The notes under the pieces are model-generated. The model was not told the origin of the DNA and ran no database searches. It saw nothing but the letters and a program-made list of their open reading frames with translations. 64,000 nucleotides of DNA from Alphaproteobacteria bacterium (GTDB lineage Bacteria; Pseudomonadota; Alphaproteobacteria; MPNO01; UBA830). Each line of letters opens with the position of its first letter. The stretch's first letter is position 1. The stretch lies in contig OZ219791.1 in the NCBI GenBank assembly GCA_964291215.2, positions 3,296,001-3,360,000 of the forward strand, read 5' to 3'. A program made the position numbers and the translations under genes. Shown piece after piece: positions 1 through 52,137 of this stretch.

Positions 1-196
1 ACAGCTGCGTGCCCTTCGGCGACGCTCCCAAAAGGACTTCACCGGGGACATAGACACCCTCGCCGCTGCCCACTGAGCCAGCATCCGCCACCCGTGGCCA
101 AACCAGCGCCTTGTCGTCAGGGGAGGAGCCGGATGCGAACAGCGCACGTCCGGTTCTGTGCGGGGGGACCGGGGCAACCCGGTTCCCTACCGCGAT
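1..196 (+). mobile_element. 3' end of group II intron (degraded IEP tail, domains V-VI), inserted antisense in IS66
   Basis: DV GAGCCGGATGCG..CGCACGTCCGGTTC at ~126-156, DVI ending CCGCGAT at 196; homologous to 36256-36462. Confidence 0.9.
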
Positions 197-1486: not shown

Positions 1487-3125
1487 GATTTTTTGCAGTT
1501 TTCGCTGGCTTTCCTGTACTGAAGTTGTCATGGTGCGGGGATGTCGGTTCACAAGCACATCGCGTCCTGTTTGATTCACGTCGCAGCTCCGGAAGGGTCT
1601 GTCCGAGTCATATGAGGTCGAGGTTCGCGAAGCCTGAGGAGCATCCGCTGCGTTGATGGACGACTATCTCGGGTTTCGCCGTCTGGCGGGGCTGCGCCAT
1701 ATTGCGTCCTTCAGGGAGCAGTGGTCTGGCCGGGGCCTTCAAAGTGCCGCGACCGGTGGCTGGAAGCCGGAGCAGCAGTGGCTTGATCTGACAACACGCG
1801 ACTGCTTGCGGCGCCGGGAACGTTTCCGAACCTCGCCTCCTTCTTTCTTGCGACGCGGCGGCTGGCCGACGACTGGGCTGCGGCCACTAGGTGGCGGAGA
1901 CGTTCTGCGATCCGGAGCGTTTTGCGGGCACAAGGCGGCGGGCTGGCGTGCCAGGGGGTTTGCCCGCGGGGCTGCACCGGGCCCCATGGCAAGGAGATTT
2001 TTGTTGTGCGGCGCGACGGCTGCTGTCGCAGGCGCTGCGGTGGCGCCGCCTGCCTCCTCGCTCCCCGGGGTTCCGAAGTGATGTGTTCGCTGCACGACGA
2101 GCTGGCGGCGATCGAGGACTTCCGCCGCGCAGGAAGCACACGGTGTGCTCACGTTCTCGCCGAGCTTGCGAACATGAAAGGCAGCTGCGCAGTTTGCGCG
2201 GTCGCTGTCCCAGGATGAGCTCAGGGCCATCGGCGGAACCCAAGGACGGGGCTGCGCGAGCCGCCCTCCAAGGCGACCCTCCACCGGGCAGTTGATCGAT
2301 CCCGAGGCGCTCGAGGACATGCTCGGTCGCGGGCTCGCCCGGGCGCTTGCCGCCGACGGCAAGCGCATCCGCGGTGCCAACCGCCACCACGAGACCGTGG
2401 CCCTCACGCCTCCGGCGCACCCTTCGCGCTGTTGAACTTTGACGACGGCGAGCTGGCGGCCACCTCCTCGAGCGCACCGATGTTCGCGGCAAGGTGATCG
2501 CCAGGCGCTGCGGCGCAGACCATGTCTTCCCGGTCAAGGGCGCCCGAAACCTTCGACGGCATCGACCGGGAGACGGATGGCCGCTTCAAGGAGGCAAGGC
2601 CCGCCTCGAGCAGCGCTCGATACGTGCCGCTCAAGGGCTTGATCAACTACCTCGGCAGATCGCCCGCATGCTGCCGCAAGCCGCCGGGAAAGAGCGCCAG
2701 CGGCGCAGCGAGCGGCAACGACTGCACCGGTACATCAGCTCGATGCGCAACACGCGTCGCCAGAGGAACTGCTGCGGCCGCGGGCCGTGGAAAACATGAA
2801 CCACCGAGACTGCGTCTTCGGCGAGGACGCCTGCCTGACCCGCAAACCGCGTCAGCCTCGACAACATCGCGCTCGCGGTGATCTTCGCCAACCGACGCGA
2901 GAGCCTCGCCGAAACACGGCGGCAGTTCGACCGCCGGGAAGCCGTCGCAGCCCTGAGCGCCAATGGTGTCCGGCCGATTCCCGGACGCCGCCCACAACCC
3001 GCCCACGCGCCGATAACGCCGTCGGCGACGACCGCGGACGGCTCCGAAGCCGGAAAACCCGGCACGCCGTGAAACCTCCGGACAGCTGAAGACAGCAAAA
3101 TTGAATGCAGCATGAGAAACGCCTG
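1487..3125 (+). mobile_element. DUF4338-ISAs1 element, heavily degraded (copy A), left end truncated by IS66
   Basis: Colinear with 37854-39925; ISAs1 motifs DGKRIRG, VKG.PETF, VENMNH.DCVFGED. Confidence 0.85.
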
Positions 3126-33828: not shown

Positions 33829-36800
33829 GTGCCCGCAAGAAAAAGTACAATTATTTGATTCCAATACCTGAATCGCGGTATGGGCGAAACGAAAAATCCC
33901 GCTTTGGGGCGGGAATCGGCCGGTTTGACCGAGAATCAACCGGATTTTCAGGAAACTTCGCGAGAATAGCCATGCGAGACGTCATCCGCCCTCAGTTGGA
34001 ATTGGGACAGGTTGCGATCGAGAAGATCGATCTCAACGAGAACTCGCGGGACGACATGCGCGGGATTCAGCACGTGTACGCCGACCCGGCTGTTTGAGAT
34101 CCTGGAGGAGGGGATCCTTCCGAGAGTATCCCACAGGAAAGGGCGTCCCGGCGCTGTGGAAGATCCTGGTGTCCTGAAGCAGGGCCTGGGGTATGACTTC
34201 GATCACCTGCACGAGCTGATGAACGAGATGGTTCGCAAGTTCCTGGGTCACATCTGGTACGACACACGCTACGGGCATCAGACGGTGGTGGACAACGTGA
34301 GCCAGCTGACGCCGGAAGTGCTGGGGAAGGTGTCGCAACTGGTCGCGGAGAGCGGCCATGCGATGATACGTAGCAAAGATTGTCCCAAGTCGGACGGTTC
34401 TCTGCGAGGCCGCTGCGATTCGTTCGTGGTGGAGGTGCACTACCCGACGGACATCAATCTTCTGTGGGATGCGTTGTCTGGTGCGCGATACAGGCCGCGC
34501 AGCGTGCGCACGGGAATGATCGAATGGCGTCAGTGGAAGCATCGGACCCGGGTATTACAGAAGCACTTTCAGAAGGTCCGTCGGGCCTCTTCGGAGGATG
34601 GTACCTCGACGCCGGCTGGGAGTTGGGGTGCAAGAGACGGTTCCTGTATTTCTGGAGAAGGGCGTTGAGGCCCTCGCAGTTCTCAAGATCGAGTCGTATC
34701 TCAAGCATGCCCGCCGACAGATCGACCAAGTGGACCGCCGCCTAAGGCGAGAAGATCCCGCAGGAAGAGAAGGTGTTTTCGATCTTCGAGGAGCGCTGGT
34801 GCGTGAAGGGCAGTGCCGGTGGGAGCGCCAGGCTAACTGGTAGGATGTCGCCGGGTGAGAGTTCCGGCAGGAAGAGAGGCTAACCACCACTTCCTCCGTG
34901 AACCATGCGTCGTGAGGCGAAGCGTTGGGGAGCGGCAAGCCGGGCTATTGAGCCACGAGATACTGTGAAACCGGAGTGCCGAGGTCGTCCACCAGGCCGA
35001 AGGCAACACCCTGCGAGCCGCGTTTGGTGAGGCGAGCAGGGCTCCGCGGGGTCTGAGAACCATGGCTGAAGCAGGGACCCGGGAGGTCTTGCCCCACTGT
35101 CGTAGAGGGGTCGCAGAGGAAAGGAACTATTCCGTAACCCGATGATGAACGAGAAGTCAGATTCGGCCATAGTACCGTCGAAGGCGGCGAACAAGGGTTC
35201 CTCGGAGCCTGCGGAGCTGCTGGAGGGAAGGGAAATGCGGTTGGCCCGCGCCGCGCAGAAGCGGGAAAGCGGGTCACAGGCGGCGCATACGACAAGTTGC
35301 GAAGAGGAATCCGGAAGAGCGTCTTGTGACGTTGCTCCATCACGTGATGTCCTGCACGCGGCGTTTCACTCCTTGAGAAAGGACGCGGCAGCGGGCGTGG
35401 ACGGAGTTACGTGGCACGCGTATGCGGAAGGTGTGGAACTGGTCGACCTGCCGTGTGCCCAGGGGTGCGTATCGGGCGCCTCCGTCGGGCATACATACCC
35501 AAGGAGGGCAACGACCGCTTGCCTCGGACAAGATTCTTAAGCGGGCAGTGACGGACACGATTCTGGTACCGCGAGACGGAGTTCCTCGGGTTCAGTTATG
35601 GTTTCCGGCCGGGACGCACAACGCGCTCGATGCAGTCACGGTGGAACGGCGGAAGGTCAACTGGATCGTTGACGCCCCTTCGACAATCTCGACCACCTGG
35701 TCGCGATGCTCGAGAGACGGATCGGGGGGTCTGATCATCAAGTGACGCTGGCGTCATGGAGCGACACCGGTGTTGGTTCGCCGCAGGGCGCAGCCCCTGC
35801 CTGGCGAACGTTTACCTGCACTACGTGACTGGTTTCAGAACCATTGGCGCAAACGGATGACTGACACGATCATCGTGCGCTATGCGGATGATTTTGTGTG
35901 CGGCTTTCAGGATCAGGGCGATGCGAAGCGCTGGGACCTCGGGGAGAGGTTGGCTCACTTGAACTGCACCCGGACAATCATCGAGTTCGGTCGGTTTGCG
36001 AGAGCGAACCGCCGGAAGCGGGGGCAAGACGTTCGACTTCCTCGGTATGAGGCACTATTGCGAGCAGACGTGGAAGGGCAAGTTCAGGGTCGGCCGCAAA
36101 CCATCCCGGAAACGGGCACCTTGCGGCGGATCAAGGAGGCGCTGCGCAAGCGGTGGCACGACAACCGGCACAAGACGGCCAAGTGGCGAGTGATCAAAGG
36201 CTGCTACTACGCCGTTCCGGGAAGCAGCCTGCAGGGGTTCATATACCAATGCAAACGGCTGCGTGCCCTTCGGCGGCGTTCCCAAAAGGATCGCACCGAA
36301 TGGAGGGACATGGACACCCTCATCGAAGCTCACTGGCCTAAGGCCAGCATCCGCCACCCGTGGCCAAACCAGCGCCTTGTCGTCAGGACCTGAGGGAGGA
36401 GCGAACAGCGCAAGTCCGGATCTGTGCGGGGGAACCGGGGAAACCCGGTTCCCTACCGCGATAACTCGGCGTGCCGGTGGCCGTTCTGGAGGATCAGCAC
36501 GGCTTTCTTCTGCACCACCGGATCCTGTGGGAAGGCAGTGACGCGGACCATGCGGTGCCCATGATCCGTGAAGTACAGGCCCGCTTCCCCGATCTGCGCC
36601 TGTGCAGTTTCGATCGGGGGTTCCACAGTCCTCGGGTCGCACTGGACGAACTACTGGATGTGCTTCCGAAGAAAAGGATGCTCTCGGACCGGGAACGGGA
36701 AGCTGAGACGACATTCCGGGAGATGCGCCGGCAGCATCCGGCTGTGGAGTCCGCGATCAACAATCTCGAGCAACGCGGCATGGACCGGGTCCTGTCCTAT

Positions 36801-37853: not shown

Positions 37854-39925
37854 CAGGACTTTCTCACGCTGCATTCGATCTTGTCGACTGCTGATGGAGG
37901 GAGGTTGTACAACCTGCCGGGTTTTCTGGCTTCAGGGCCGTCCGCGGTCGTCGCCGGCGGCGTTGCCGGTGCGCGGGCGGGTTGTTTTCGGGATGTGGGC
38001 GGGTTGTGGGCGGTGTCCGGGAATCGGCCGGACGCCATTGGCGCTCAGGGCTGAATCAGAGCTGCGACGGCTTCTCGGCGGTCGAGCTGCAGCCGCCGCC
38101 GTGTTTCGGCGAGGCTCTCGCGTCGGTTGGCGAAGATCACCGCGAGCGCGATGTTGTTGAGGCTGGCGCGGTTTGCGGGGCCGTTGCCGGTGCGTGTCAG
38201 GCAGGCATCTTCGCCGAAGACGCAGTCTCTCTGGCGGTGGTTCATGTTTTCCACAGCCCAGTGCCCGCGATTGAGCCGCAGCAGTTCCTCTGGCGACGCG
38301 TGTTGCGCATCGAGCGAGGTGATGATGTATTCGGTACAGTCGTTGCCGCTCGCTGCGCCGCTGGCGCTCTTTCCCAGCGGCTCACGGTAGCGCTTGATGC
38401 GGGCGATCTGGCTGATGCCGGGGTAGTTGATCAAGCCCTTGAGCGGCGTCAGGACACGTATCGAGCGCTGCTCGAGGCGTCCGTGGGCCTTGTCTAACTT
38501 TTCCTTGAAGCGGCCGCTGGCATCTGTCTCCCAGTCGATGCCGTCGAGGATATCGAAGGTTTCGGGCGCATTGCCCTTGACCGAGAAAACATAGTCTGCG
38601 CCGCAGCGCCGGGTGATCAGCGCCGCCGTCTTGCGCGTCGTGGCGTCGAGGGTGATCACCTTGCCGCGGACATCGGTGCGCTCGAGGAGGTGGCCGCCAA
38701 CTCACCTCCCTCGTCGTCGAAATTCAACAGCGCGAAGGGTGCGCCGGAGGCGTGAGAGCCACGGTCTCGTGGTGGCCGTCGCCGTTGCGGTTGGCGCCGC
38801 GGATGCGCTTGCCGTCGGCGGCAAGCGCTCGGGCGAGCCTGCGCCCGCCATAGCGGCCGAGTACATCCTCGAGCGCCTCGGGGTCGATCGACTGCCCGGT
38901 GGAGGGTCGCCTTGGAGGGCGGCTCGCGCAGCTCCGTCCTCGGGTTCCGCCATGCGCCGATGGCCTCGAGCTCGTCCTGAGACAGCGACCGCGCAAACTG
39001 CGCAGCTGCGAGGCAGCCTTTCATGTTCGCAAGCTCGGCGAGAACGTGTACCGTGAGCACGCAGGCCACCGTGTGCTTCCTGCCCTGCGCGCGGCGGAAG
39101 TCCTCGATCGCCGCCAACTCTTCGTGCAGCGAACGCATCACCTCGGAACCCCGGGGAGCGAGGAGGCAGGCGGCGCTACCGCAGCGCCTGCGGACGTGAC
39201 AGCAGCCGCCGGGCGTCGCGCCGCAGCGGCACAACGAAAATCTCCTTGGGCTTACCATGGGGGTCGGTGTAGCGCCCGTTGGCGCGGGCAAACCCCTTGG
39301 TCCGGCGCACGCCAGCCTGCCGCCTTGTGCCCGCAAAACGCGCCGGATCGCAGAATGTCTCCGCCACAACCACCTGGTGGCCGTAGGCCTCCAGCCAATC
39401 GTCGGCCAGCCGCCGCGTCATATGCGCAAGAAAGAAGGAGGCAAGGTTCGGAAACGTTCCCGGCGCCGCAAGTACCAGCAGTCGCGTGTTGTTCGCGATC
39501 AGATCAAGCCGCCGGAACTGCTGCTCTGACTTCCAGCCAATCCACCGGTCGCGGCACTTGAAGGCCCCGTTCTGCCACGCCGCCAGACCCAGCCACTGCC
39601 CCCTGAAGGACGCAATGTAGCGCAGACCGCGTCCTGCCAGACGGCGAAACCCGAGATAATGATGCTCGTCCATCAACGCATCCCACAGCAGACGCTCCTC
39701 AGGCTTCGCGAACCTCAACCTCGGACAGGCGAAACCCTTCCGGAGCTGCGACGTGAATCGGACAGGATGCGATGTGCTTGTGAACCGACATCCCCGCACC
39801 ATGACAACTTCAGTGCAAGAAAGCCAGCGAAAACTGTAAAAAAATCTCCCGCACCAACCCGCGACCCCGCAAAGCCCAGGTACTGCCTTGAAAAATCAGA
39901 CAGAATTTAGCGTAAGACCACCCTG
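37854..39925 (-). mobile_element. DUF4338-ISAs1 element (copy C, least eroded)
   Basis: IRs CAGGGTGGTCTTACG / CAGGACTTTCTCACG; TSD CTTGCATTC; HYLGF..RDRWIGW..NNTR, VITLDA, GHWAVEN. Confidence 0.93.
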
Positions 39926-40070
39926 CTTGCATTCCGACATCGATTGAGCGCGGCCACGAAACCGTCTATGTTGTCCATGTCGCTCCAGCGTGAACCCGGC
40001 ATCCGCGCCGCAGGATGTGGAAGGCTTCGCAAGGACTGGGGATGGGGAGGACAGCAGTTGTCTTTTTGTG

Positions 40071-40101
40071 TTATACAACATTAATTCATACTGTTGTATA
40101 A
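40071..40101. promoter_or_regulatory. Palindromic operator upstream of NTase gene
   Basis: TTATACAACA-N11-TGTTGTATAA perfect inverted repeat. Confidence 0.6.
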
Positions 40102-40103
40102 TC

Positions 40104-41135
40104 ATGACCAACGATCTCCGGTTCCACAGCCACACCGGCAACGCCGCTTATCACGACCTTCGGCGGCTCCTCATGGACGCCGCAGTGTCCGAAATCCGCG
40201 GTACGCCAACCCGGATTGCCGTCAAGGGCCGCCATTTCTGGTATGACAAATACCGGATCGGCGATGAGGTGCGACAACGCTACATCGGACCCGAAACCAA
40301 CGAACTACTCGCCAGACTGGGCCGCCTAGGCCGGTCGAACGCCGACCGCAGGGCATTGCAGCAGGAGCAGGCCCGCCTCGTCCGGCTCCTGAGAGCCAGC
40401 AACTACCGATCGATGGATCGCGGCACCGGCAGCCTCTTGGCTGCATTCGCCAGATGCGGTGTCTTCCGCCTGGGCGGCACGCTGGTCGGGACGGTCGCCT
40501 TCCAGCACTACGAGGGCGAACTCGGCGTGGTCATGGACTTCGACCAGACCGCCCGCACCGACGATATTGATATCGCTAGCTTCGAACGACTGTCCTTCGC
40601 GCTTGGCGACAGTGTTGAAACACCGCTGGATGACGTCTTCCGGGACCTGAAGTTCCAGCCCGTTCCCTCTCTGGACCGGCAGCACGTCTGGCGCTGGCGC
40701 CAGACAAGCGGACCGGTCCTGGTCGAGTTCCTGATGCCGGCGCACGGGAAAGAAGGTGTGCGCAAACTGCCGGCCCTGGGCGTCAGCGCTCGGGCCCTGC
40801 ACCATCTCGACTATCTCTTCGAGGACCCCGTTCCGGCTGTGTCGCTCTACCGATCCGGCGTGCTCGTCCAGATCCCGCGGCCTGAACGCTACGCCATGCA
40901 CAAGCTGATCGTGGCTGAACGGCGTCACGACGGGCCGGACTCGTTGAAAGCTGCAAAGGACCGTGCCCAGGCGGATTTTCTCATCGCTGCCTTGGCAGAG
41001 CTGCGCCCGGATGAATTACGTCTGGCCCATGACGAAGCCATGGAGCGCGGGCCCGGCTGGCGCAACCGGATCAAAGCCAGCTTGGACAGGCTGCCGGACG
41101 CAAAGGAACACCTGCTTGAGACAGCCGGCGGCTGA
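40104..41135 (+). CDS. GSU2403-family nucleotidyltransferase-fold protein
   Basis: QRYIGP, GGTLVGT.AF, TDDIDI, PERYAMHKL, KDRAQA. Confidence 0.88.
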   Translation: MTNDLRFHSHTGNAAYHDLRRLLMDAAVSEIRGTPTRIAVKGRHFWYDKYRIGDEVRQRYIGPETNELLARLGRLGRSNADRRALQQEQARLVRLLRASNYRSMDRGTGSLLAAFARCGVFRLGGTLVGTVAFQHYEGELGVVMDFDQTARTDDIDIASFERLSFALGDSVETPLDDVFRDLKFQPVPSLDRQHVWRWRQTSGPVLVEFLMPAHGKEGVRKLPALGVSARALHHLDYLFEDPVPAVSLYRSGVLVQIPRPERYAMHKLIVAERRHDGPDSLKAAKDRAQADFLIAALAELRPDELRLAHDEAMERGPGWRNRIKASLDRLPDAKEHLLETAGG

Positions 41136-43453: not shown

Positions 43454-43473
43454 GTGTCTCCATGCCGGGGCCG

Positions 43474-45398
43474 CACGGCGATCCCACGCTAGGTTTGTTG
43501 GAAGGGTCGGTTTTGCTTGTTCAGGATGATTCGCATTTTCGCTGGCTTTTTGTGAAGCGGCGTAGTATCCGTTGTCGTGGGGGCAGCGGATTTTTTTGAG
43601 ACGACTCTGGAGGGTTTTGCGCTCCGGGATGTGGTTGTGCGCCTTGCGCGGCCTGATGTCGCTGGAACCGTGTTGTTGACCGTATCTTGGTTTCAAGCAG
43701 TTTGCCGGTCGAGGTCTGCGTATTCACTTGGCGCGGGCGGTGGATTGGTGCTGCGGGCTGGCAGACGGGCGCCCTCAGCTGCGCACCCGTTGGCTGGCGC
43801 CGCGAGGAACAGTTCAGGCGGTTGCCGGGAACAACACGAGGTTTGTTGTTCTTGGTGGTCGTTTCCGGGCCTCGTTTGTGTTGTCGCGGATGGTGCGGCG
43901 GCGACTGGGAGGCTGCCGTTGCTTGTTGCGGAGTCGTTTGTCTCGCCGACGAAGTTCAGCGGCACCATGTACAAGGCAGCGAACTGGGAGTGCGTTGGCA
44001 GGAGCTATGCGCGCGCCAGCGGGCGCTATACCGACCGGGGAGGCGAAGGATCTTTACGTGTTTCCGCTGCGTCGTGACGTCGGCTGCGGGATCGTTCGCC
44101 GCTTCCTGTGGCGTGGGAGTTGCGGGCGCCGCTGGTCGGCGCAGGAGTTGCGCTCGATTTATCAGCGGCGCTTTCCGGCGCGCGCAGGGGCACCGCGGCG
44201 ACGCCTGGAGCTACGACGACGAATTCGTCCGACTTCCGGCGCGCGCAGGGGCGCAAGCACCGCATCGCCTCGGTGCTGTGCGTGATTTTGCTGGCTTGCG
44301 AACCGGCACGGTGCGGTTGCGGCGGCGCACTACGCGATGACGCAGAAGGAGCTGGAGCAGCATGGAAGAACAGGGACAAGCCGGTTTCCAAATCGACCGT
44401 GCACCGGGTGCTGCAGAACACCGACCCGGGATGGATCGAGGATGCGGCGCGCAGCCGCGCCTGGAGGTCGGCAACGCGGTCGACGGCAAGCGCATCCGCG
44501 GCCGCACCGGCGAGGATCATTACGAGACGGTCTCGCTGGCCGGTATTCGATCCTCAACTATCACGACGGGGAGATCGCTGCCGTCCACGCCGCGACGGCA
44601 CCGGTTGCCGGCCGTCTGCTCACCCTCGACGCGCTCCATACCACCCGCGAGACCGCGCGGCTGATCGTCGAGACCCATCGCGCGGACTGGATGATGATGG
44701 TCAAGGGCAACGCGCCCGAGACCTTCGAGACCTTCGAGAGCATCAACTGGAAGACCGCCAGCGCTACAACGAAAAGCCCGCGCATGGCCGCCAGCGCACC
44801 ATCGAGGTCTTCACCCCGCTGGCGAAGATGATCAACTAGTCAAGCAGATCTTCCGCGTCACCCGACGCGTCGAATTCAAGAAATCCAGAAAACGGACAAC
44901 CGAATACGCCATGACCTCGGTCAAGCGCGCCTCGCCGCAACAGCTGCTCGCATGGAATCGCGGACACTGGGTAGTCGAGAGCCACCATCATGTCCGCGAT
45001 GCCACCTTCCGCGAAGACGACTCCATGCTCCGAACGCGCCAGCAAACAACGCGATCACCCTCGCAATCGCCGTCATCATCCGCAACAAACGCAAGCTGCC
45101 CAAACCCTTCAACAGCTTCGTCGACGCCCGCCACCACTATGCCGACAAGCGCAAGCAGGTCCTGCACGCAATCACAAGACCAGGCTGACCGCGCCTCTCT
45201 CCCCGACAGAAACTGCAAGCTCTCGAGCCCGGCAACCAAACCCGGCAGGCCTCTCGCTCACCCCGGATACGCCGACCAATCGCGCCCCGCGCCGTAACAG
45301 CGCGTCAGCAAATCTCAAAATCGCAGCCTCGAACGCGTCGACCCGCGCCACGATCAGGACTCCGATCACATCACATCAACAAGCATGGGATCACCTTG
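43474..45398 (+). mobile_element. Second DUF4338-ISAs1 subfamily element, heavily degraded
   Basis: IRs CACGGCGATCCCACG / CATGGGATCACCTTG; perfect 10-bp TSD GCCGGGGCCG. Confidence 0.9.
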
Positions 45399-45453
45399 GC
45401 CGGGGCCGGAGTCAGGCTTGCAAATGGTACCAATAACTGATACTGACCACTTC

Positions 45454-45708
45454 ATGAAAAAGCGCCATAGAGCCACGCTGGAACTGATCTTCGTCCGCCC
45501 CGTCAACGGCTCAATCCGCTGGTCCGACATTGAGGCGCTGTTTGCCGCTCTTGGGGCGGAAATCAGCGAACGGGAAGGTTCGAGAATAGGCGTGTTTCTG
45601 TTTGGCGAAGTTCGCGTCTTTCACCGCCCGCATCCGTCACCGGATACGGACAAGGGTGCGGTTGCCAGTATTCGCAAGTGGCTGGAAGAACACGGAGTGA
45701 AACCATGA
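45454..45708 (+). CDS. hicA: HicA toxin
   Basis: W.DIEALF..LGA.I.E..GSR, FHRPHP. Confidence 0.92.
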   Translation: MKKRHRATLELIFVRPVNGSIRWSDIEALFAALGAEISEREGSRIGVFLFGEVRVFHRPHPSPDTDKGAVASIRKWLEEHGVKP

Positions 45709-46055
45709 TCAATGTGATCGAGATCGATGGGGAGAAGGCGGTCGTTACCTTTGACTCAGACATTCAGATGCTGCGCGGCGAGTTTATCGGGCTGAATGGC
45801 GGCGCCGACTTCTATGCCGAGAGTGTCCACGATCTGATCGAGGAAGGCCGGAAATCGCTGGCGGTCTATCTGGAGATGTGTCGGGAAAAGGGCATCGAAC
45901 CGGGCCGAAAATTTTCCGGGAAGTTCAATGTCCGCCTCGATCCTTCCGATCATGCCGCAGCAGTCATTGCAGCCGCCGCAGCGGGCAAGAGCCTGAATGA
46001 ATGGGTCGTCGGGGCGATCAGGGAAGCCGCCGAGAGTGGCAACCAGGCGGCCTGA
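45705..46055 (+). CDS. hicB: HicB antitoxin
   Basis: ATGA overlap; ADFYA, FSGKFNVR, SLNEW. Confidence 0.92.
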   Translation: MINVIEIDGEKAVVTFDSDIQMLRGEFIGLNGGADFYAESVHDLIEEGRKSLAVYLEMCREKGIEPGRKFSGKFNVRLDPSDHAAAVIAAAAAGKSLNEWVVGAIREAAESGNQAA

Positions 46056-47780
46056 TCTTGAGCCTATGACTGGATCGTTTCGGTATCGACATATGTTTGA
46101 GAAGGAGACCGGGCATGAACGCCCCCGCTTCCACCATCACTCGGCACGCTGCCCCTTAGCTGTGCGTCTCGACGGCGCGTCAGGCCCAGCATGAGGTCTC
46201 CATTCCCGACCAGAAGCGACAAGGCGAAGTCCAGGGTGGTCTTACGCTAAATTCTGTCTGATTTTTCAAGGCAGTACCTGGGCTTTGCGGGGTCGCGGGT
46301 TGGTGCGGGAGATTTTTTTACAGTTTTCGCTGGCTTTCTTGCACTGAAGTTGTCATGGTGCGGGGATGTCGGTTCACAAGCACATCGCATCCTGTCCGAT
46401 TCACGTCGCAGCTCCGGAAGGGTCTGTCCGAGGTTGAGGTTCGCGAAGCCTGAGGAGCGTCCGCTGTGGGATGCGTTGATGGACGACTATCTCGGGTTTC
46501 GCCGTCTGGCGGGGCTGCGCTATATTGCGTCCTTCAGGGGGCAGTGGCTGGGTCTGGCGGCGTGACGGGGCCTTCAAGTGCCGCGACCGGTGGATTGGCT
46601 GGAAGCCGGAGCAGCAGGGCTTGATCTGACAACACGCGACTGCTTGCGGCGCCGGGAACGTTTCCGAACCTTGCCTCCTTCTTTCTTGCGACGCGGCGGC
46701 TGGCCGACGATTGGCTGGAGGCCTACGGCCACCAGGTGGCGGAGACGTTCTGCGATCCGGCGCGTTTTGCGGGCACAAGGCGGCAGGCTGGTGTGCCAAG
46801 GGGTTTGCCCGCGGGCGCTACACCGACCCCCATGGTAAGGAGATTTTCGTTGTGCGGCGCGACGGCTGCTGTCGCAGGCGCTGCGGTAGCGCCGCCTGCC
46901 TCCTCGCTCCCCGGGGTTCCGAGGTGATGCGTTCGCTGCACGAAGAGTTGGCGGCGATCGAGGACTTCCGCCGCGCAGGAAGCACACGGTGTGCTCACGT
47001 TCTCGCCGAGCTTGCGAACATGAAAGGCAGCTGCGCAGTTTGCGCGGTCGCTGTCTCAGGACGAGGCCATCGGCGGAACCCGGGGACGGAGCTGCGCGAG
47101 CCGCCCTCCAAGGCGACCCTCCACTGGGCAGTCGATCGACCCCGAGGCGCTTGAGGATGTACTCGGCCGCGGGCTCGCCCGAGCGCTTGCCGCCGACGGC
47201 AAGCGCATCCGCGGCGCTAACCGCAACGGCCACCACGAGACCGTGGCTCTCACGCATCCGGCGCACCCTTCGCGCTGTTGAATTTCGACGACGGTGAGCT
47301 GGCGGCCACCTCCTCGAGCGCACCGATGTCCGCGGCAAGGTGATCACCCTCGACGCCGGCGGCGCTGATCACCCGGCGCTGCGGCGCAGACTATGTCTTC
47401 TCGGTCAAAGGCAATGCGCCCGAAACCTTCGACATCCTCGACGGCATCGACTGGGAGACAGATGGCCGCTTCAAGGAAGAGTAAGGCCCGCCTCGAGCAG
47501 CGCGTGCCGCTCAAGGGCTTGATCAACTACCCCGGCCAGATCGCCCGCATCAAGCGCTACCGCGAGCCGCTGGGAAAGAGCGCCAGCGGCGCAGCGAGCG
47601 GCAACGACTGTACCGATACATCATCACCTTATATGACTAGGTTTTGTCCCCTTGATGATGAAATCATCCACAGCAGTTGGGGGCGGGAAAATGTGGATCT
47701 GTGGGAGAGCTATGGTTGCAGAGAGATTCCGCTCCCCTGAGCGAACACGCACAGGGGAGCGGGGATCAAACGATCTCCGC

Positions 47781-47904
47781 GGAGGTTGCCGTTTTCACCT
47801 TGACAGGGCCGCGAGCGAGTGTGGTCGGCCAACCTCCCTTGACGTCCCTCGCATGGATGCTTGGGTTTGAACCCGTATCATCGTAAGGCGAGGAGCAAGG
47901 GACG
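47781..47904 (+). ncRNA. IS110 bridge RNA target- and donor-binding loops
   Basis: Two stem-loops whose internal loops match the target (TCACCT; CGAGCGAG) and donor (CATGGATGCT; TAAG). Confidence 0.8.
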
Positions 47905-48636
47905 ATGGTCAAGATAGTAGCAGGGGTCAGCCAGTCTGGACATCTGGCGCATTGTTTTGCGAACGACGCCACGGGCAAGTGGCTTCGCGGCCTCGGGGTG
48001 AGCCGGGTGGTGGGCGACAGGCCGCTATCACCGCAAGGTTCACCAGTGTCTTCATGACCGGGGCTTCGAGGTTATTCTCGTCAACCCGTTGCGGGCGCTT
48101 CGCCGAGGCGATGGGCCATCTGGCCGACCGCGTCGACGCCAAGATCGGCTGGGCGATCTTGAGCCTGTGGCTCCGCCTTCCTCAAGAGCCTGGAGGATCT
48201 CCTGGTGCCGCGCTTGTCGACGCCAAGCAGGTGGCAGATGAGGTGGATGGCGAGACCGTCACAAGGGCCTCAGCGGCCGATCTCGATGACCGCATTGCCG
48301 GCGCGGCGATCAAAGCGGTGATCGCCGGTGATCCCGAGCAGAGGTACCCTGACCTCGATCCGGTGACCGCCGCAGCCCTTCTGGATGCCCGAACTCGGCA
48401 GCGTCGGCAGGCGGCAGCCTTGATCGGGGTGGCGCCGATGGCCAACGACTACGGTGCTCGGCACATCCGTGGCGGGCGCCGAAGGCCACGCGATCTCCTG
48501 GCCGCGACCGGCACGCTTCAACGCGGACCTGGTGCGCCTCAAGACTGCCGGCAAGCAAGGTCGCGATTGTCGCCGTGATGCGCAAGCTCTGGCGAACACC
48601 TTGCTGCGACAGCAGCGTTGCCTGAAGTACCGGTGA

Positions 48637-48837
48637 GTGAGCGAAGGAGACACGGCCCTCACCCCTGCCGAGAGCGCGATCGGGACTGTCTCGACAGTCT
48701 CCCTCTACGACACGACTTGGGGAGAATGTCTGCAGATCATCGTCGAGGTCGACATCAAGGAGATCGAACCGCCTTGGGACACCTGGAACCCGGACGGTCA
48801 CGTGCCCGGGGACGGCAAGGTAGCCGCGTTCACGTGA
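48637..48837 (+). CDS. Small acidic hypothetical protein inside IS110
   Basis: 66-aa open frame downstream of the recombinase. Confidence 0.4.
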   Translation: MSEGDTALTPAESAIGTVSTVSLYDTTWGECLQIIVEVDIKEIEPPWDTWNPDGHVPGDGKVAAFT

Positions 48838-49509
48838 CCAATGGACGGCAACCCGCCGCCGGGACCACAAGCTTCATGTCGCCTCGCTCGCAGAGCAAAC
48901 CCCACACCGCTTGTGGACAACCACAGAAAACATCACCACAGACACCCGCAAAAACCTTGCCAAGAAACATGGATGCTCGCTCGATGCGCAACACGCCAGA
49001 GGAACCGCTGCGGCCGCGGGCCGTGGAAAACATGAACCACCGAGACTGCGTTTTCGGCGAAGACGCCTGCCTGACACGCCCGCAAACCGCGCCAGCCTCA
49101 ACAACATCGCGCTCGCGGTGATCTTCCGACGCGAGAGCCTCGCCGAAACACGGCGGCGGCTCGACCGCCGAGAAGCCGTCGCAGCTCTGATTCGGCCCTG
49201 AGCGCCAATGGCGTCCGGCCGATTCCCGGACGCCGCCCACAACCCGCCTACATCCCGAAAACAACCCGCCCACGCGCCGGCAACGCCGCCGGCGACGACC
49301 GCGGACGGCCCCAAAGCCAGAAAACCCGGCAGGTTGTACAACCCCCCTCCATCAGCAGTCGACAAGATCGAATGCAGCGTGAGAAAGTCCTGGCCTCCAA
49401 GACGAAGCGCTTGTCATCGGACCCTCCCGGGTGTAAACTTACCGTCTTCGATGCGACTTTACGTATCGTCGGTGATGATGGCTTTTCATGCGTCCCGGCG
49501 GCACAACCT

Positions 49510-49585
49510 GCCCAGGTAGCTCAGTTGGTAGAGCATCGCACTGAAAATGCGGGTGTCGGTGGTTCGAATCCGCCCCTGGGCACCA
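49510..49585 (+). tRNA. tRNA-Phe(GAA)
   Basis: 76-nt cloverleaf, anticodon loop CTGAAAA, TTCGAAT, CCA end. Confidence 0.97.
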
Positions 49586-49661: not shown

Positions 49662-52043
49662 TCAACCTTCCTTGCCCGAGATCGCCTTCCAGACGGTCTC
49701 GGGTGTCAGAGGCATCGCGAGATCGGTCACGCCTGTCGGGGCGAGCGCATCAAGCGCCGCGCCGACCACGGCGGCCGGCGAGCCGATGGAACCCGATTCA
49801 CCGCACCCCTTCGCGCCGAGCGGGTTGTGGGTGCAGGGATGGGACTCGTCGAGCCTGCCTTCGAAACTCACGAGGTCGTCGGCTCGCGGCATGCAGTAAT
49901 CGAGATAGGATCCCGAAAGGAGTTGTCCCGAGCGCGGATCGTAGCTGCAGTGTTCCGTCATCGCCTGGCCGATTCCCTGCGCGAGGCCGCCATGGACCTG
50001 ACCCTCGACGATGAGGGGATTGATCACGGTTCCGATATCGTCGACCGTGAGGTAGCTCATGATCTCCATGGTGCCGGTCTCGGCATCGATCTCGATCTCG
50101 CAGAGGTGGCCGCCGTTGGAATAGGCGAAGTTGGGCGGGTCGTAGAACGCGTTCTCGTTCAGGCCCGGTTCGACCCCTGCGGGGAGGGCATGGGCGACAT
50201 TGGCGGCTGCGGCAACGCTCTGGAGCGGCAGCCGCCGGTCGGTGCCGGCGACCGTATACATCCCGTCGTCGAAAACGAGGTCTCCGGGATCGGCCTCGAG
50301 CAGATCGGCGGCAATCAACCGTCCCTTGGCGATTATCTTGTCGGCGGCGGCGGCGATCGCCGATCCGCCCACCGCGATGGAGCGCGAGCCAAAGGTGCCG
50401 GTTCCCATCTGCACGACGCCGGTATCGCCCTCGATGACCTCGACCGTGGAATAGGGCAGGCCCAGACGCTCGGCGACGATCTGGGCGTAGGTAGTCTCGT
50501 GGCCCTGCCCGTGATTGTGCGTGCCCGCGAGAATCTGCACGCTGCCGTCTCCGGCGATGCGGATCTCGGCGCTTTCGAAGAAACCGACTCGAGCGCCGAG
50601 CATGCCTGCCAGGCGTGACGGGGCGACGCCGGACGTCTCGACGAACAGGGCCAGGCCGATGCCTCGGAGCCTGCCCCTGTGCGCCGATTCCTCGCGGCGT
50701 TTGGCAAAACCCCGCCAGTTCCCGACCTTGAGAAGCGCATCCAGAATTCCAGGGAAGTCGCCGCAGTCATAGGTCGGTCCGATCGGCGTTGCATAGGGCA
50801 TGCAATCGGCTGGAATCAGGTTGCGGCGTCGGATTTCGACCCGGTCGATGCCAAGCAACCGGGCGGCCTCGTCGGCAAGGCGCTCGAGCACGTAGCAGGC
50901 TTCGGGGCGGCCAGCGCCGCGATAGGCGTCGACCGGCACCGTGTTGGTGAGCGCGGCCGTCACATCGATGCGGATGGCCGGTGTGCCGTAGATGCCGGCC
51001 AGCAGTGCAGTGTAGATCGCACCCGGAATCGCGGCGCCGAACGTCGAGACGTAGGCGCCGACATTGGCGGTGGTGACGACGTGCAGACCCAGGAACCGGC
51101 CGTCGGCATCAATGCCGAGCCTCGCCCGCGTCAGGTGGTCTCGAGCCTGTGTATCGCTGCTGAAGGCCTCCGAGCGGCTGGAAATCCAGCGTATGGGAAC
51201 ACCGAGGCGGCGTGCGGCCCAGACGAGGATTGTCTCTTCGGGATAATGCTTGCCTTTGGTTCCGAAGCCGCCGCCGACATCAGGCGCGATCACGCGGAGC
51301 TTGTGCGTCGGCAGCGACAACGCTTCGCAGACCGAGCGGCGGATCAGATGCGGGGCCTGGGTGGCATCGTGAAGAACCGTGATATCCGATGTCGGGTCGT
51401 GCGAGGCCAGACAGGCCCGTGCCTCGATCGCTCCGCAGGCGAGCCGGTTGTTGATGAGTTCAAGTTCGACCACATGGTCAGCGGTTGCGATCGCTGTTGC
51501 CGCCTTGTCCGCATCTCCCCGGCCCCAGGAGAACAGGCGGTTGCCAGCGATCTCCGGATGCAAGAGCGGCGCGCCGTCGGCGAGTGCGGTGCTTGCGTCG
51601 GTGACCGCGGGCAGGGGGCGGTATTCGACCCCTACCTCCAATGCCGCGTCCCCGGCCTGCGCCTCTGTTTCGGCGACGATCATCGCGACCGCCTCACCGA
51701 CATGGCGCACGCGGCCGCGTGCCAGTGGCCACCGTTCGGGGACGATCATCCTGGAGCCGTCAGAATCTTCCATGATCCACATGCAGGGCATCGGCAAAAT
51801 ACCCTCGTCTGCCATGTCCTCGCCGGTGAGGCAGGCAACGACACCCGGCATGCGTGCGGCTTCCTCCACATCCACGGCGACGATCTCGGCATGGCTGTGT
51901 GGCGAGCGGATGAACGCGGCATGATGCTGGTTCGGAACCACGATGTCGGAAACGAACCGTCCCCGTCCCTGCAGGAAGCGTTCGTCCTCCTTGCGGATGA
52001 GAGGCTGGCCGATTCCTTGCGAAACGGCTTTGGAATTGGTCAT
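49662..52043 (-). CDS. Xanthine dehydrogenase/CoxL-like molybdopterin-binding subunit
   Basis: VGGGFG, AYRGAGRPE, HGQGHET, AKGCGE. Confidence 0.93.
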   Translation of the reverse strand: MTNSKAVSQGIGQPLIRKEDERFLQGRGRFVSDIVVPNQHHAAFIRSPHSHAEIVAVDVEEAARMPGVVACLTGEDMADEGILPMPCMWIMEDSDGSRMIVPERWPLARGRVRHVGEAVAMIVAETEAQAGDAALEVGVEYRPLPAVTDASTALADGAPLLHPEIAGNRLFSWGRGDADKAATAIATADHVVELELINNRLACGAIEARACLASHDPTSDITVLHDATQAPHLIRRSVCEALSLPTHKLRVIAPDVGGGFGTKGKHYPEETILVWAARRLGVPIRWISSRSEAFSSDTQARDHLTRARLGIDADGRFLGLHVVTTANVGAYVSTFGAAIPGAIYTALLAGIYGTPAIRIDVTAALTNTVPVDAYRGAGRPEACYVLERLADEAARLLGIDRVEIRRRNLIPADCMPYATPIGPTYDCGDFPGILDALLKVGNWRGFAKRREESAHRGRLRGIGLALFVETSGVAPSRLAGMLGARVGFFESAEIRIAGDGSVQILAGTHNHGQGHETTYAQIVAERLGLPYSTVEVIEGDTGVVQMGTGTFGSRSIAVGGSAIAAAADKIIAKGRLIAADLLEADPGDLVFDDGMYTVAGTDRRLPLQSVAAAANVAHALPAGVEPGLNENAFYDPPNFAYSNGGHLCEIEIDAETGTMEIMSYLTVDDIGTVINPLIVEGQVHGGLAQGIGQAMTEHCSYDPRSGQLLSGSYLDYCMPRADDLVSFEGRLDESHPCTHNPLGAKGCGESGSIGSPAAVVGAALDALAPTGVTDLAMPLTPETVWKAISGKEG

Positions 52044-52137
52044 CGGCAGGTCCTCGTCAGGCAGCACGGCATGGGACGGCCAGTCCGGGGCGTCCTCCGG
52101 GAAGTATCCGGCGCGGCTGTGTCATCGGCAACCGGCC

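Follow-up and report, generated by a model that had tools for sequence, protein, structure and literature searches.

How does an insertion sequence (IS) of the IS110 family come to lie in one particular serine codon of another mobile element's gene? The case considered here is found in a stretch of 64,000 nucleotides (nt) from an alphaproteobacterium (assembly GCA_964291215.2, contig OZ219791.1, positions 3,296,001 to 3,360,000), the whole of which we term the window; the genome holding it (G000, with contigs C1 and C2) measures 6.15 Mb, 27% of which is repeats. A sequence-only reading of the window had proposed that the element encodes a bridge RNA of the IS621-type architecture with a CT core, that this RNA is programmed against the ISAs1 transposase gene in which it sits, and that a multicopy IS serves it as a safe harbour. 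The architecture is supported by paralogues, an intact relative and RNA covariation: the element at 47630-48977 is a real, well-supported, decayed bridge-RNA IS110. Its guides match both the insertion site and its own ends; therefore, the bridge RNA likely steered the insertion of this copy. The ISAs1 programming stands for the guide of the window copy, which matches the ISAs1 site, and is too narrow for the family, which has 18 guide combinations in G000. The best overall explanation, which we consider probable, is a guided insertion of the IS621 type using many guides that were re-aimed to multicopy DNA.

The sequences flanking the element, when rejoined, give the empty site of an uninterrupted ISAs1 copy (copy C; Table 1), which the earlier reading had pointed out and which is found with 0 mismatches at 38311-38324 on the minus strand; all other coordinates given in that reading likewise agreed on rechecking. 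Only the CT is repeated, and the rejoined joint is present in contigs of two public runs too. The element thus displays the scarless insertion around a short core and the lack of terminal inverted repeats typical of the IS110 family: no end-to-end inverted repeat was found among the 25 longest of 32 listed. The host gene is split in the Ser codon of an I-T-S-L motif (around residue 540). Its ISAs1 membership is indicated by the presence of the DDE_Tnp_1_assoc and DDE_Tnp_1 transposase and by NF033564, which exceeds its cut-off for copy C as well as for the best-kept copy; no target duplication is seen at the ends of the host (46232-49392). Searches of the window's recombinase fragments against Pfam and NCBIfam gave no match, and no Rfam family reached the gathering score over the element; the G000 paralogues, however, match PF02371, PF01548 and NF033542.

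The predicted bridge RNA lies ahead of the recombinase pseudogene. As had been proposed, TCACCT at 47795-47800 corresponds to the four bases left of the core plus CT, and 47812-47819 is the exact reverse complement of CT plus six bases of the right flank; this right target guide is common to one other copy, which lies at the same site. When the left end was shuffled by mononucleotides, 1 shuffle in 20,000 gave both target matches in the right order at a distance of 5-25 nt, and the region 47725-47915 folds with a z of -4.5, none of 200 shuffles being as stable. Other details required trimming. The left donor match of ten out of ten bases (47852-47861 to 48968-48977) is present, but its tenth base was made by a 7-nt deletion and the real guide is 8-9 nt long; TAAG at 47884-47887 is correctly located, but the right donor guide is longer than these 4 nt, spanning approximately 47878-47887 with one bulged base. 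The promoter proposed for the circle junction (TTGCCA-17-TATGAC) has the stated 17-nt spacer and is plausible, though weak by consensus because the -10-like hexamer lacks the final T; a promoter scan of the integrated form found no site. The guides had further been expected to lie in unpaired loops. In the window copy they are not cleanly unpaired (mean unpaired probability 0.38-0.49 in the naked fold) because three deletions of 5-7 nt, at 47788, 47802 and 47852, damage the scaffold, whereas the target guides do form loops in the consensus of 12 less-damaged relatives.

The intact relative (1966 bp) is present as four identical copies in another genome, G041 (reference locus L040). Its recombinase, at L040:2421-3368, is a 315-aa open reading frame with DEDD (PF01548) and Tnp (PF02371) domains, whose best solved match is IS621 (8wt6; E 2e-28) and whose residues are in register with D11/E60/D102/D105/S241 of the latter; the DEDD and Ser catalytic set is thus present in the intact relative, while the gene of the window copy is frameshifted. 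The left end of the intact relative folds at a z of -6.7. In an alignment of 12 less-damaged relatives the left end shows a target loop followed by a donor loop, each with an internal loop and an inner hairpin, and 99% of the 423 cells of this scaffold are paired. Changes on both sides are seen in 6 of 36 pairs, five of them in the outer target stem, and only 0-1 of 500 shuffles score as high on four of five measures. This covariation supports the predicted target loop with its inner hairpin; it speaks mainly for that loop because the donor-loop stems hardly vary. The donor guides match the joined ends in both G000 and the relatives, and the second base of the element covaries with the right donor guide in all 20 readable loci of the relatives and in all four variant-ended G000 copies. 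By eye, the handshake pairing base occurs in both guides whose target has a T before the core, and also in a few whose target has a C there. Traits of the IS1111 group were not seen: the guides lie upstream rather than downstream of the gene, and no sub-terminal inverted repeat of 7-17 bp was found. The short right end of the IS621 type is also absent: at about 700 bp the right end is longer than the left because it holds a passenger gene, the bridge RNA still being in the left end.

What makes this family informative is its range of guides. G000 yields 68 left-end and 71 right-end matches, amounting to about 60 copies; a length filter kept 62 left and 70 right ends. The donor ends are nearly constant across these copies, while 18 combinations of target guides are found on the 62 left ends, with two more in truncated copies. 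They differ by one or two letters and have their left and right halves in mixed combinations, one such mixed guide (C1-2112912) fitting a single-copy site on both sides. The guides follow the flanks: on the left, 4.12 of 5 positions agree as against 2.96 after shuffling (41 copies; 21 were left out because their junction had been deleted or replaced or their guide is 10 nt long), and on the right 4.93 of 6 as against 3.89 (57 copies), with a p of 5e-5 for each side. With one vote per site (14 sites each side), p is 1.5e-4 on the left and 1e-4 on the right. Further, a guide predicted for a site class that had lacked a match later turned up in a truncated copy. The guide pair of the window occurs once, and just 3 of the 62 left ends and 5 of the 70 right ends are at its site; most other copies thus lie elsewhere, contrary to the possibility, raised in the earlier reading, that all insert there. 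Nor are they found at unrelated sequences, which that reading would have counted against its claim, since every site class has a matching guide of its own in the family.

In a tree made with the guide letters blanked, the copies with the commonest guide still lie to one side of a branch whose support is 99. The guide of the window copy likely arose late, by two letter changes, from the guide that fits the corresponding codons of a second ISAs1 family. At the window's site (site A), the three complete copies possess, respectively, that sister guide with two mismatches, an intermediate with one and the matched guide with none; both changes in this series are transversions, which make up about one in four substitutions here. 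It may represent a stepwise switch to an unfilled site, or else a matched guide overwritten by a commoner one. In one G000 copy (C2+2356349), and at the loci L080, L089 and L094 of another genome, G050, the target fits the left guide only after a shift of one base, which suggests tolerance of a bulge. Several left ends (e.g. C2-686701, C2-868412, C2+178908 and C1+2246187) have another IS within their first 20 bases. By eye, the left flank of C2-1488754 and the right flank of C2-1145913 form one continuous frame fitting one guide, the picture that would result if a single site had been divided by recombination between IS110 copies; the joined flanks resemble what we take to be the start of an IS630 element.

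Ten multicopy site classes were mapped in G000, out of about 14 classes overall. Four lie in the ISAs1 family of the window (one sense and three antisense, the latter at residues 58, 331 and 438), one at the homologous T-S codons of the second ISAs1 family, one each in ISNCY, IS66 and a probable IS1634 (host E), and two in a DruA-Tn5-like IS4. The IS1634 label depends on one weak match (E 7e-4) because the five genomes searched yielded no intact relative of host E; plasmid searches for hosts I and J were blank. The right flank has at least 9 genomic matches in 53 of the 58 copies with both ends, and four of the 58 lie in near single-copy DNA, so that the safe harbour survives as a tendency of the family and not as a specialization on ISAs1. 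Counting sites as filled, empty with a perfect 11-mer, and empty with a mismatched or deleted one, occupancy is 13/1/12 at site E, 3/1/8 at D, 11/1/20 at C and 21/5/16 at B; at all four, perfect 11-mers are mostly filled and the empties mostly carry alleles that mismatch the guide. The inserted elements are less diverged than their hosts, with median substitutions per kb of 14 versus 39 at E, 12 versus 56 at A, 15 versus 49 at D and 26 versus 36-39 at B and C. On the host trees the filled hosts do not form a single branch and are scattered among the empties. Of the 13 guide 11-mers, 7 have at least 3 empty repeat sites, compared with 12% of 3507 neighbours one or two steps away.

The same relationship recurs outside G000. 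At the protein level, the lineage was detected in 9 of 121 genomes around G041 and on two metagenome contigs; within the order of G000, such a search gave one distant copy in 1 of 77 other genomes, and a DNA search of 40 relatives of G000 gave just two short weak matches. From 23 loci in eight genomes or contigs come 10 further guides on the same donor, and these guides too follow their flanks (p 5e-5 to 1e-4). Among 21 loci with scanned flanks, 10 have a transposase or reverse transcriptase, one a methylase in a multicopy element, six ordinary genes and four nothing; this tally makes mobile DNA the commonest landing place, not the sole one. Some landing sites are group II intron ends: L068 in G045, with a reverse-transcriptase match, and L076, L082 and L086 in G041 along with L083 and L087 in G045, which we assign to such ends by their end motifs. 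At 13 places in G041 (L048-L060) the left end is represented by its first 55 bp alone; next to them comes a gene for a DNA adenine methylase, part of a multicopy element, and within 1.5 kb no right end was seen.

The chemistry of IS621, as set out in the available parts of its descriptions (PMC11208160; PMC11208158), comprises a circle, a junction promoter, a bridge RNA and recombination at CT. By analogy, a working element of this family would circularize, form a junction promoter and make its bridge RNA, which with the recombinase would mediate recombination at CT into a site of 11-14 bp spelled by the target loop. Guides would change by one or two substitutions and by a swap of left and right halves between copies. 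A guide that happens to fit dispensable DNA present in many copies would find the same site again and again with little harm done, and such guides have likely spread for this reason; a mismatching allele is likely why some host copies stay empty. The guides of the sister copies likely record how bridge guides get re-aimed in nature.

Every G000 copy is broken: 57 of 57 have 15-29 deletions in the recombinase gene, and hence the family is dead in this assembly. Relative to the intact element, each copy has lost about 580 nt in approximately 42 deletions, and 87 of 182 distinct deletions measure 5-7 nt. This signature extends well beyond the family: in 250 random repeat windows the distinct indels number 62 at 4 nt, 435, 876 and 606 at 5, 6 and 7 nt, and 106 at 8 nt, with a second hump at 12-14 nt, few of 2-4 nt and modest microhomology. 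Old IS families are riddled with 5-7 nt deletions (e.g. window 46232-49392, 37854-39925 and 1487-3125), while younger IS and core genes are intact; low-copy paralogues show a smaller peak, and the copies of the relatives no obvious one. MutS is intact in G000, and a search for a Ku gene there found none. Loops of at least 5 nt probably escape MutS. Bacterial indel spectra are described, in the part of the report available, as a power law with a 3n bias (PMC6054270); our literature search, outside which most of the subscription literature lies, met no report of a 5-7 nt peak.

This decay raises the possibility that the broken copies moved with a recombinase supplied in trans by a helper, either lost or resident in a co-occurring bacterium, each copy using its own bridge RNA. 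We view this as a credible though minority option, and it is compatible with guided insertion. Copies that lie at different sites matched by their guides, and that have 15-29 deletions in the gene, are nearly the same in sequence, and the last 26 bp of the element are free of deletions in 57 copies. In 17 copies with the commonest guide (e.g. C2-2422769), deletions of 6 and 5 nt in the two arms leave a shorter, fully paired target stem, as either selection or hairpin correction might produce. The bridge RNA and donor of IS621 work in trans, according to the available part of PMC11208160. Two runs that hold window DNA (X1 and X2) also contain pieces that agree with the intact G041 element throughout and without gaps; therefore, the window genome and that element likely occur in the same samples. 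On the other hand, a depletion of deletions in the bridge RNA was looked for and not found, their density there (2.15 per 100 nt) being close to that of the gene (2.52); the intact relative is about 7% divergent and belongs to another genome; and conversion after insertion would yield the same picture. Two intact IS110 genes of about 415 aa on C1 (480775-482061 and 883541-884827), considered as helpers, were rejected, as they belong to a second, unrelated IS110 family. A more elaborate account, which we put forward as speculative and would sooner doubt than hold, has one donor with a guide repertoire changing within one genome by point changes and half swaps: it would move to a new site in a rival transposon once the old one runs out, with the series at site A caught in mid-step, and the defective copies would spread on a borrowed recombinase with a small gene shared with IS21.

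Less likely still is that few insertions were real, one per site class, and that host transposition or gene conversion multiplied them, in which case copy numbers and empty alleles would be uninformative. At site B, about ten copies have in common a single deletion that destroys the junction; left and right flanks often come from different site classes; and deletions are common to many copies and recombining, with four gametes in 491 of 2371 deletion pairs. Conversion and recombination have thus been strong and blur the counts, and conversion among copies could by itself lower their divergence relative to the hosts. These points also weigh against the spread by guided insertion that we favour, as do several others. 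Site A, at 3-5/19/16, is far from saturated, and sites G, H, I and J are mostly unfilled too. The enrichment of guide 11-mers in repeats is partly circular, because only copies that survived supplied the guides, and in single-copy DNA the 13 guide 11-mers have about 172 exact matches that are empty, which fits selection against insertion but also a stricter specificity. The host trees are weak, with one or two starred branches each, and some rows of host B are mislabelled. Many copies are mosaics with a guide unlike their own flank, including two of the three complete copies at site A, where the tree does not fix the direction of the mismatch series; and among the relatives the guide of L071 is unlike its right flank. 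Against a mere handful of insertions, however, the hosts are older than the elements inserted in them, empty hosts lie between filled ones on the trees (six label changes for E), and near-identical copies, 2-7 substitutions apart, lie at four site classes, all fitting their guide. It would also leave the covariation of guide and flank across 14 site classes and eight other genomes unexplained.

An improbable view is that of a dedicated ISAs1 parasite with one conserved motif as its safe harbour. The window guide does fit the I-T-S-L codons, its sister fits the homologous codons of the second ISAs1 family, and five of the ten multicopy classes lie in ISAs1. However, the window's site accounts for the few left ends noted above, three of the ISAs1 sites are antisense and at unrelated positions, further sites lie in four other kinds of IS, and the relatives land in group II introns, other IS and ordinary genes; as a claim for the whole family it is contradicted. 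Very doubtful is the notion that guides are rewritten from the flanks, with the target DNA serving as a template after a mismatched insertion: the descending mismatches at site A, by transversions of the rarer class, would suit it, but other rare variants move away from their own flank (C2+3385613, C1-926035 and C2+1912835), and overwriting of the matched guide by the commoner sister gives the same series. That deletions and mosaic guides are artefacts of mis-polished repeats can practically be set aside: the two private letters of the window guide were not seen in contigs of three runs (contigs drop rare variants), but contigs of public runs do contain the same deletion alleles and the empty site, the younger IS families are intact, as are core genes, and two errors would hardly both restore the match to the flank.

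The passenger gene of the right end is intact in 16 of 16 full-length matches, silent changes exceeding amino-acid changes in each, and by this measure is under purifying selection; it is more conserved than the recombinase. The protein has 1415 homologues and no Pfam family; a structure model (pLDDT, the predicted local distance difference test, of 86) gave no fold match in the PDB at E 0.001, and a plasmid search was blank. Of seven other loci checked, six have a member of its family beside istB of an IS21 element, and G041 has about 28 further copies of the family. Both ends of the element carry DnaA-box-like 9-mers, three in all (element positions 35, 71 and 1908 of L040; about 47666 and 48912 in the window), presumably one mismatch from the consensus. 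In the window, the 9-nt remnant near 1606 has lost nearly the whole element between an internal CT and the right core.

Table 1. Features of the window and of the intact reference locus L040.
Feature	Coordinates	Strand	Remarks
Decayed IS110-family element, IS621 type	47630..48977	+	1348 bp, versus 1966 bp in the intact relative
CT core repeat bracketing the element	47628-47629 and 48976-48977	+	
Target-binding loop of predicted bridge RNA	47781..47837	+	6-nt deletion shortens outer stem; 5-nt deletion breaks inner stem
Left target guide	47792..47800	+	Last 6 nt equal left flank plus core; allele in 1 of 62 copies
Right target guide	47812..47819	+	8 of 8 complementary to core plus right flank
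Donor-binding loop	47843..47904	+	Inner stem broken by 7-nt deletion at 47852
Left donor guide	47853..47861	+	Matches 48969-48977
Right donor guide	47878..47887	+	Discontinuous pairing with core and first element bases
Recombinase pseudogene	47905..48636 (end approximate)	+	Family through paralogues and intact relative
-35-like hexamer	48957..48962	+	Would join -10-like 47632-47637 in the circle, 17-nt spacer
Remnant of 96-aa passenger gene	48655..48775 (limits approximate)	+	Gene intact in relatives
96-aa passenger gene	L040:3398-3685		Intact in relatives; predicted helical
Host, decayed ISAs1 with DruA(DUF4338)-DDE_Tnp_1_assoc-DDE_Tnp_1 fusion gene	46232..49392	+	Split by the IS110 element; no target duplication
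ISAs1 copy C, uninterrupted	37854..39925	-	9-bp target duplication; holds the empty target
Copy of second ISAs1 family	43473..45294	+	T-S codons about 44911-44922, target of the sister guide, empty here
9-nt remnant of the same IS110 family	1606..1614	-	Site C, antisense, near 5' end of third ISAs1 copy (1487-3125)
Group II intron pieces	34859-35061 and 124-196		One splits an ISNCY copy
Nucleotidyltransferase (NTP_transf_8)	39990-41135		
HicAB pair	45385-46055		
tRNA gene	49510-49582		
Xanthine-dehydrogenase-type molybdoprotein	49662-52067		

Bridge RNAs are reprogrammable in the laboratory and guides differ between species, natural guide change being described, in the portions of the literature available to us, as single cases. 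A literature search gave neither an ISAs1-targeting IS110 nor a guide repertoire within one genome; the supplements of PMC11208160 and PMC11187229 lie outside it and may hold the lineage. The useful part of the present family is the repertoire within a single genome together with occupancy at the level of alleles: a series on one scaffold, with guides one or two letters apart, recombined halves and alleles either filled or skipped, furnishes natural predictions for the tolerance of mismatches, wobbles and bulges. The breadth of the repertoire and the allele occupancy make natural guide change directly testable, and the intact relatives offer a compact recombinase with ten natural guide-target pairs.

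Several known systems bear comparison with this family. IS4321 and IS5075 of the IS1111 group are reportedly IS110-family elements that land in another mobile element, namely in the terminal repeats of Tn21, and are said to have the IS1111 layout with sub-terminal repeats, unlike the family described here. With the expanded IS110 elements (10.64898/2026.08.14.744561, as far as its available part goes) it shares extra cargo, but the G000 lineage has one small kept gene rather than resistance cargo. The available part of another report states that partial guide matches can drive recombination (10.64898/2026.08.31.748434); by analogy, such half-match events may bear on the mismatched copies and on the 9-nt remnant. 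ISEc21 and ISMch6 likewise belong to the IS110 group with an upstream non-coding region; in the text at hand, ISEc21 targets catalytic codons of IS3-family transposases, and ISMch6 exemplifies natural redirection, with three changed bases between relatives (PMC11187229). There, however, each element has one target and redirection is seen between species, whereas G000 has 18 guide combinations for about 14 site classes and a shorter recombinase, of IS621 size. The closest likeness is with IS621 (8wt6): as portrayed in the available parts of PMC11208160 and PMC11208158, both have a DEDD and Ser recombinase of about 315 aa, a CT core, an RNA in the left end with the target loop preceding the donor loop, a 9-nt left target guide, a discontinuous right donor guide and a promoter at the circle junction. 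The G000 family differs from it in its longer ends (315 bp on the left, and about 700 bp with the 96-aa passenger gene on the right), in a right target guide of 7-8 nt, in its many guides per genome, in targeting other mobile elements rather than the repetitive extragenic palindromic (REP) sequences of IS621, and in that all its G000 copies are broken. The mechanism itself is the known one of IS621, and an IS110 element inserting into another IS is already known from ISEc21.

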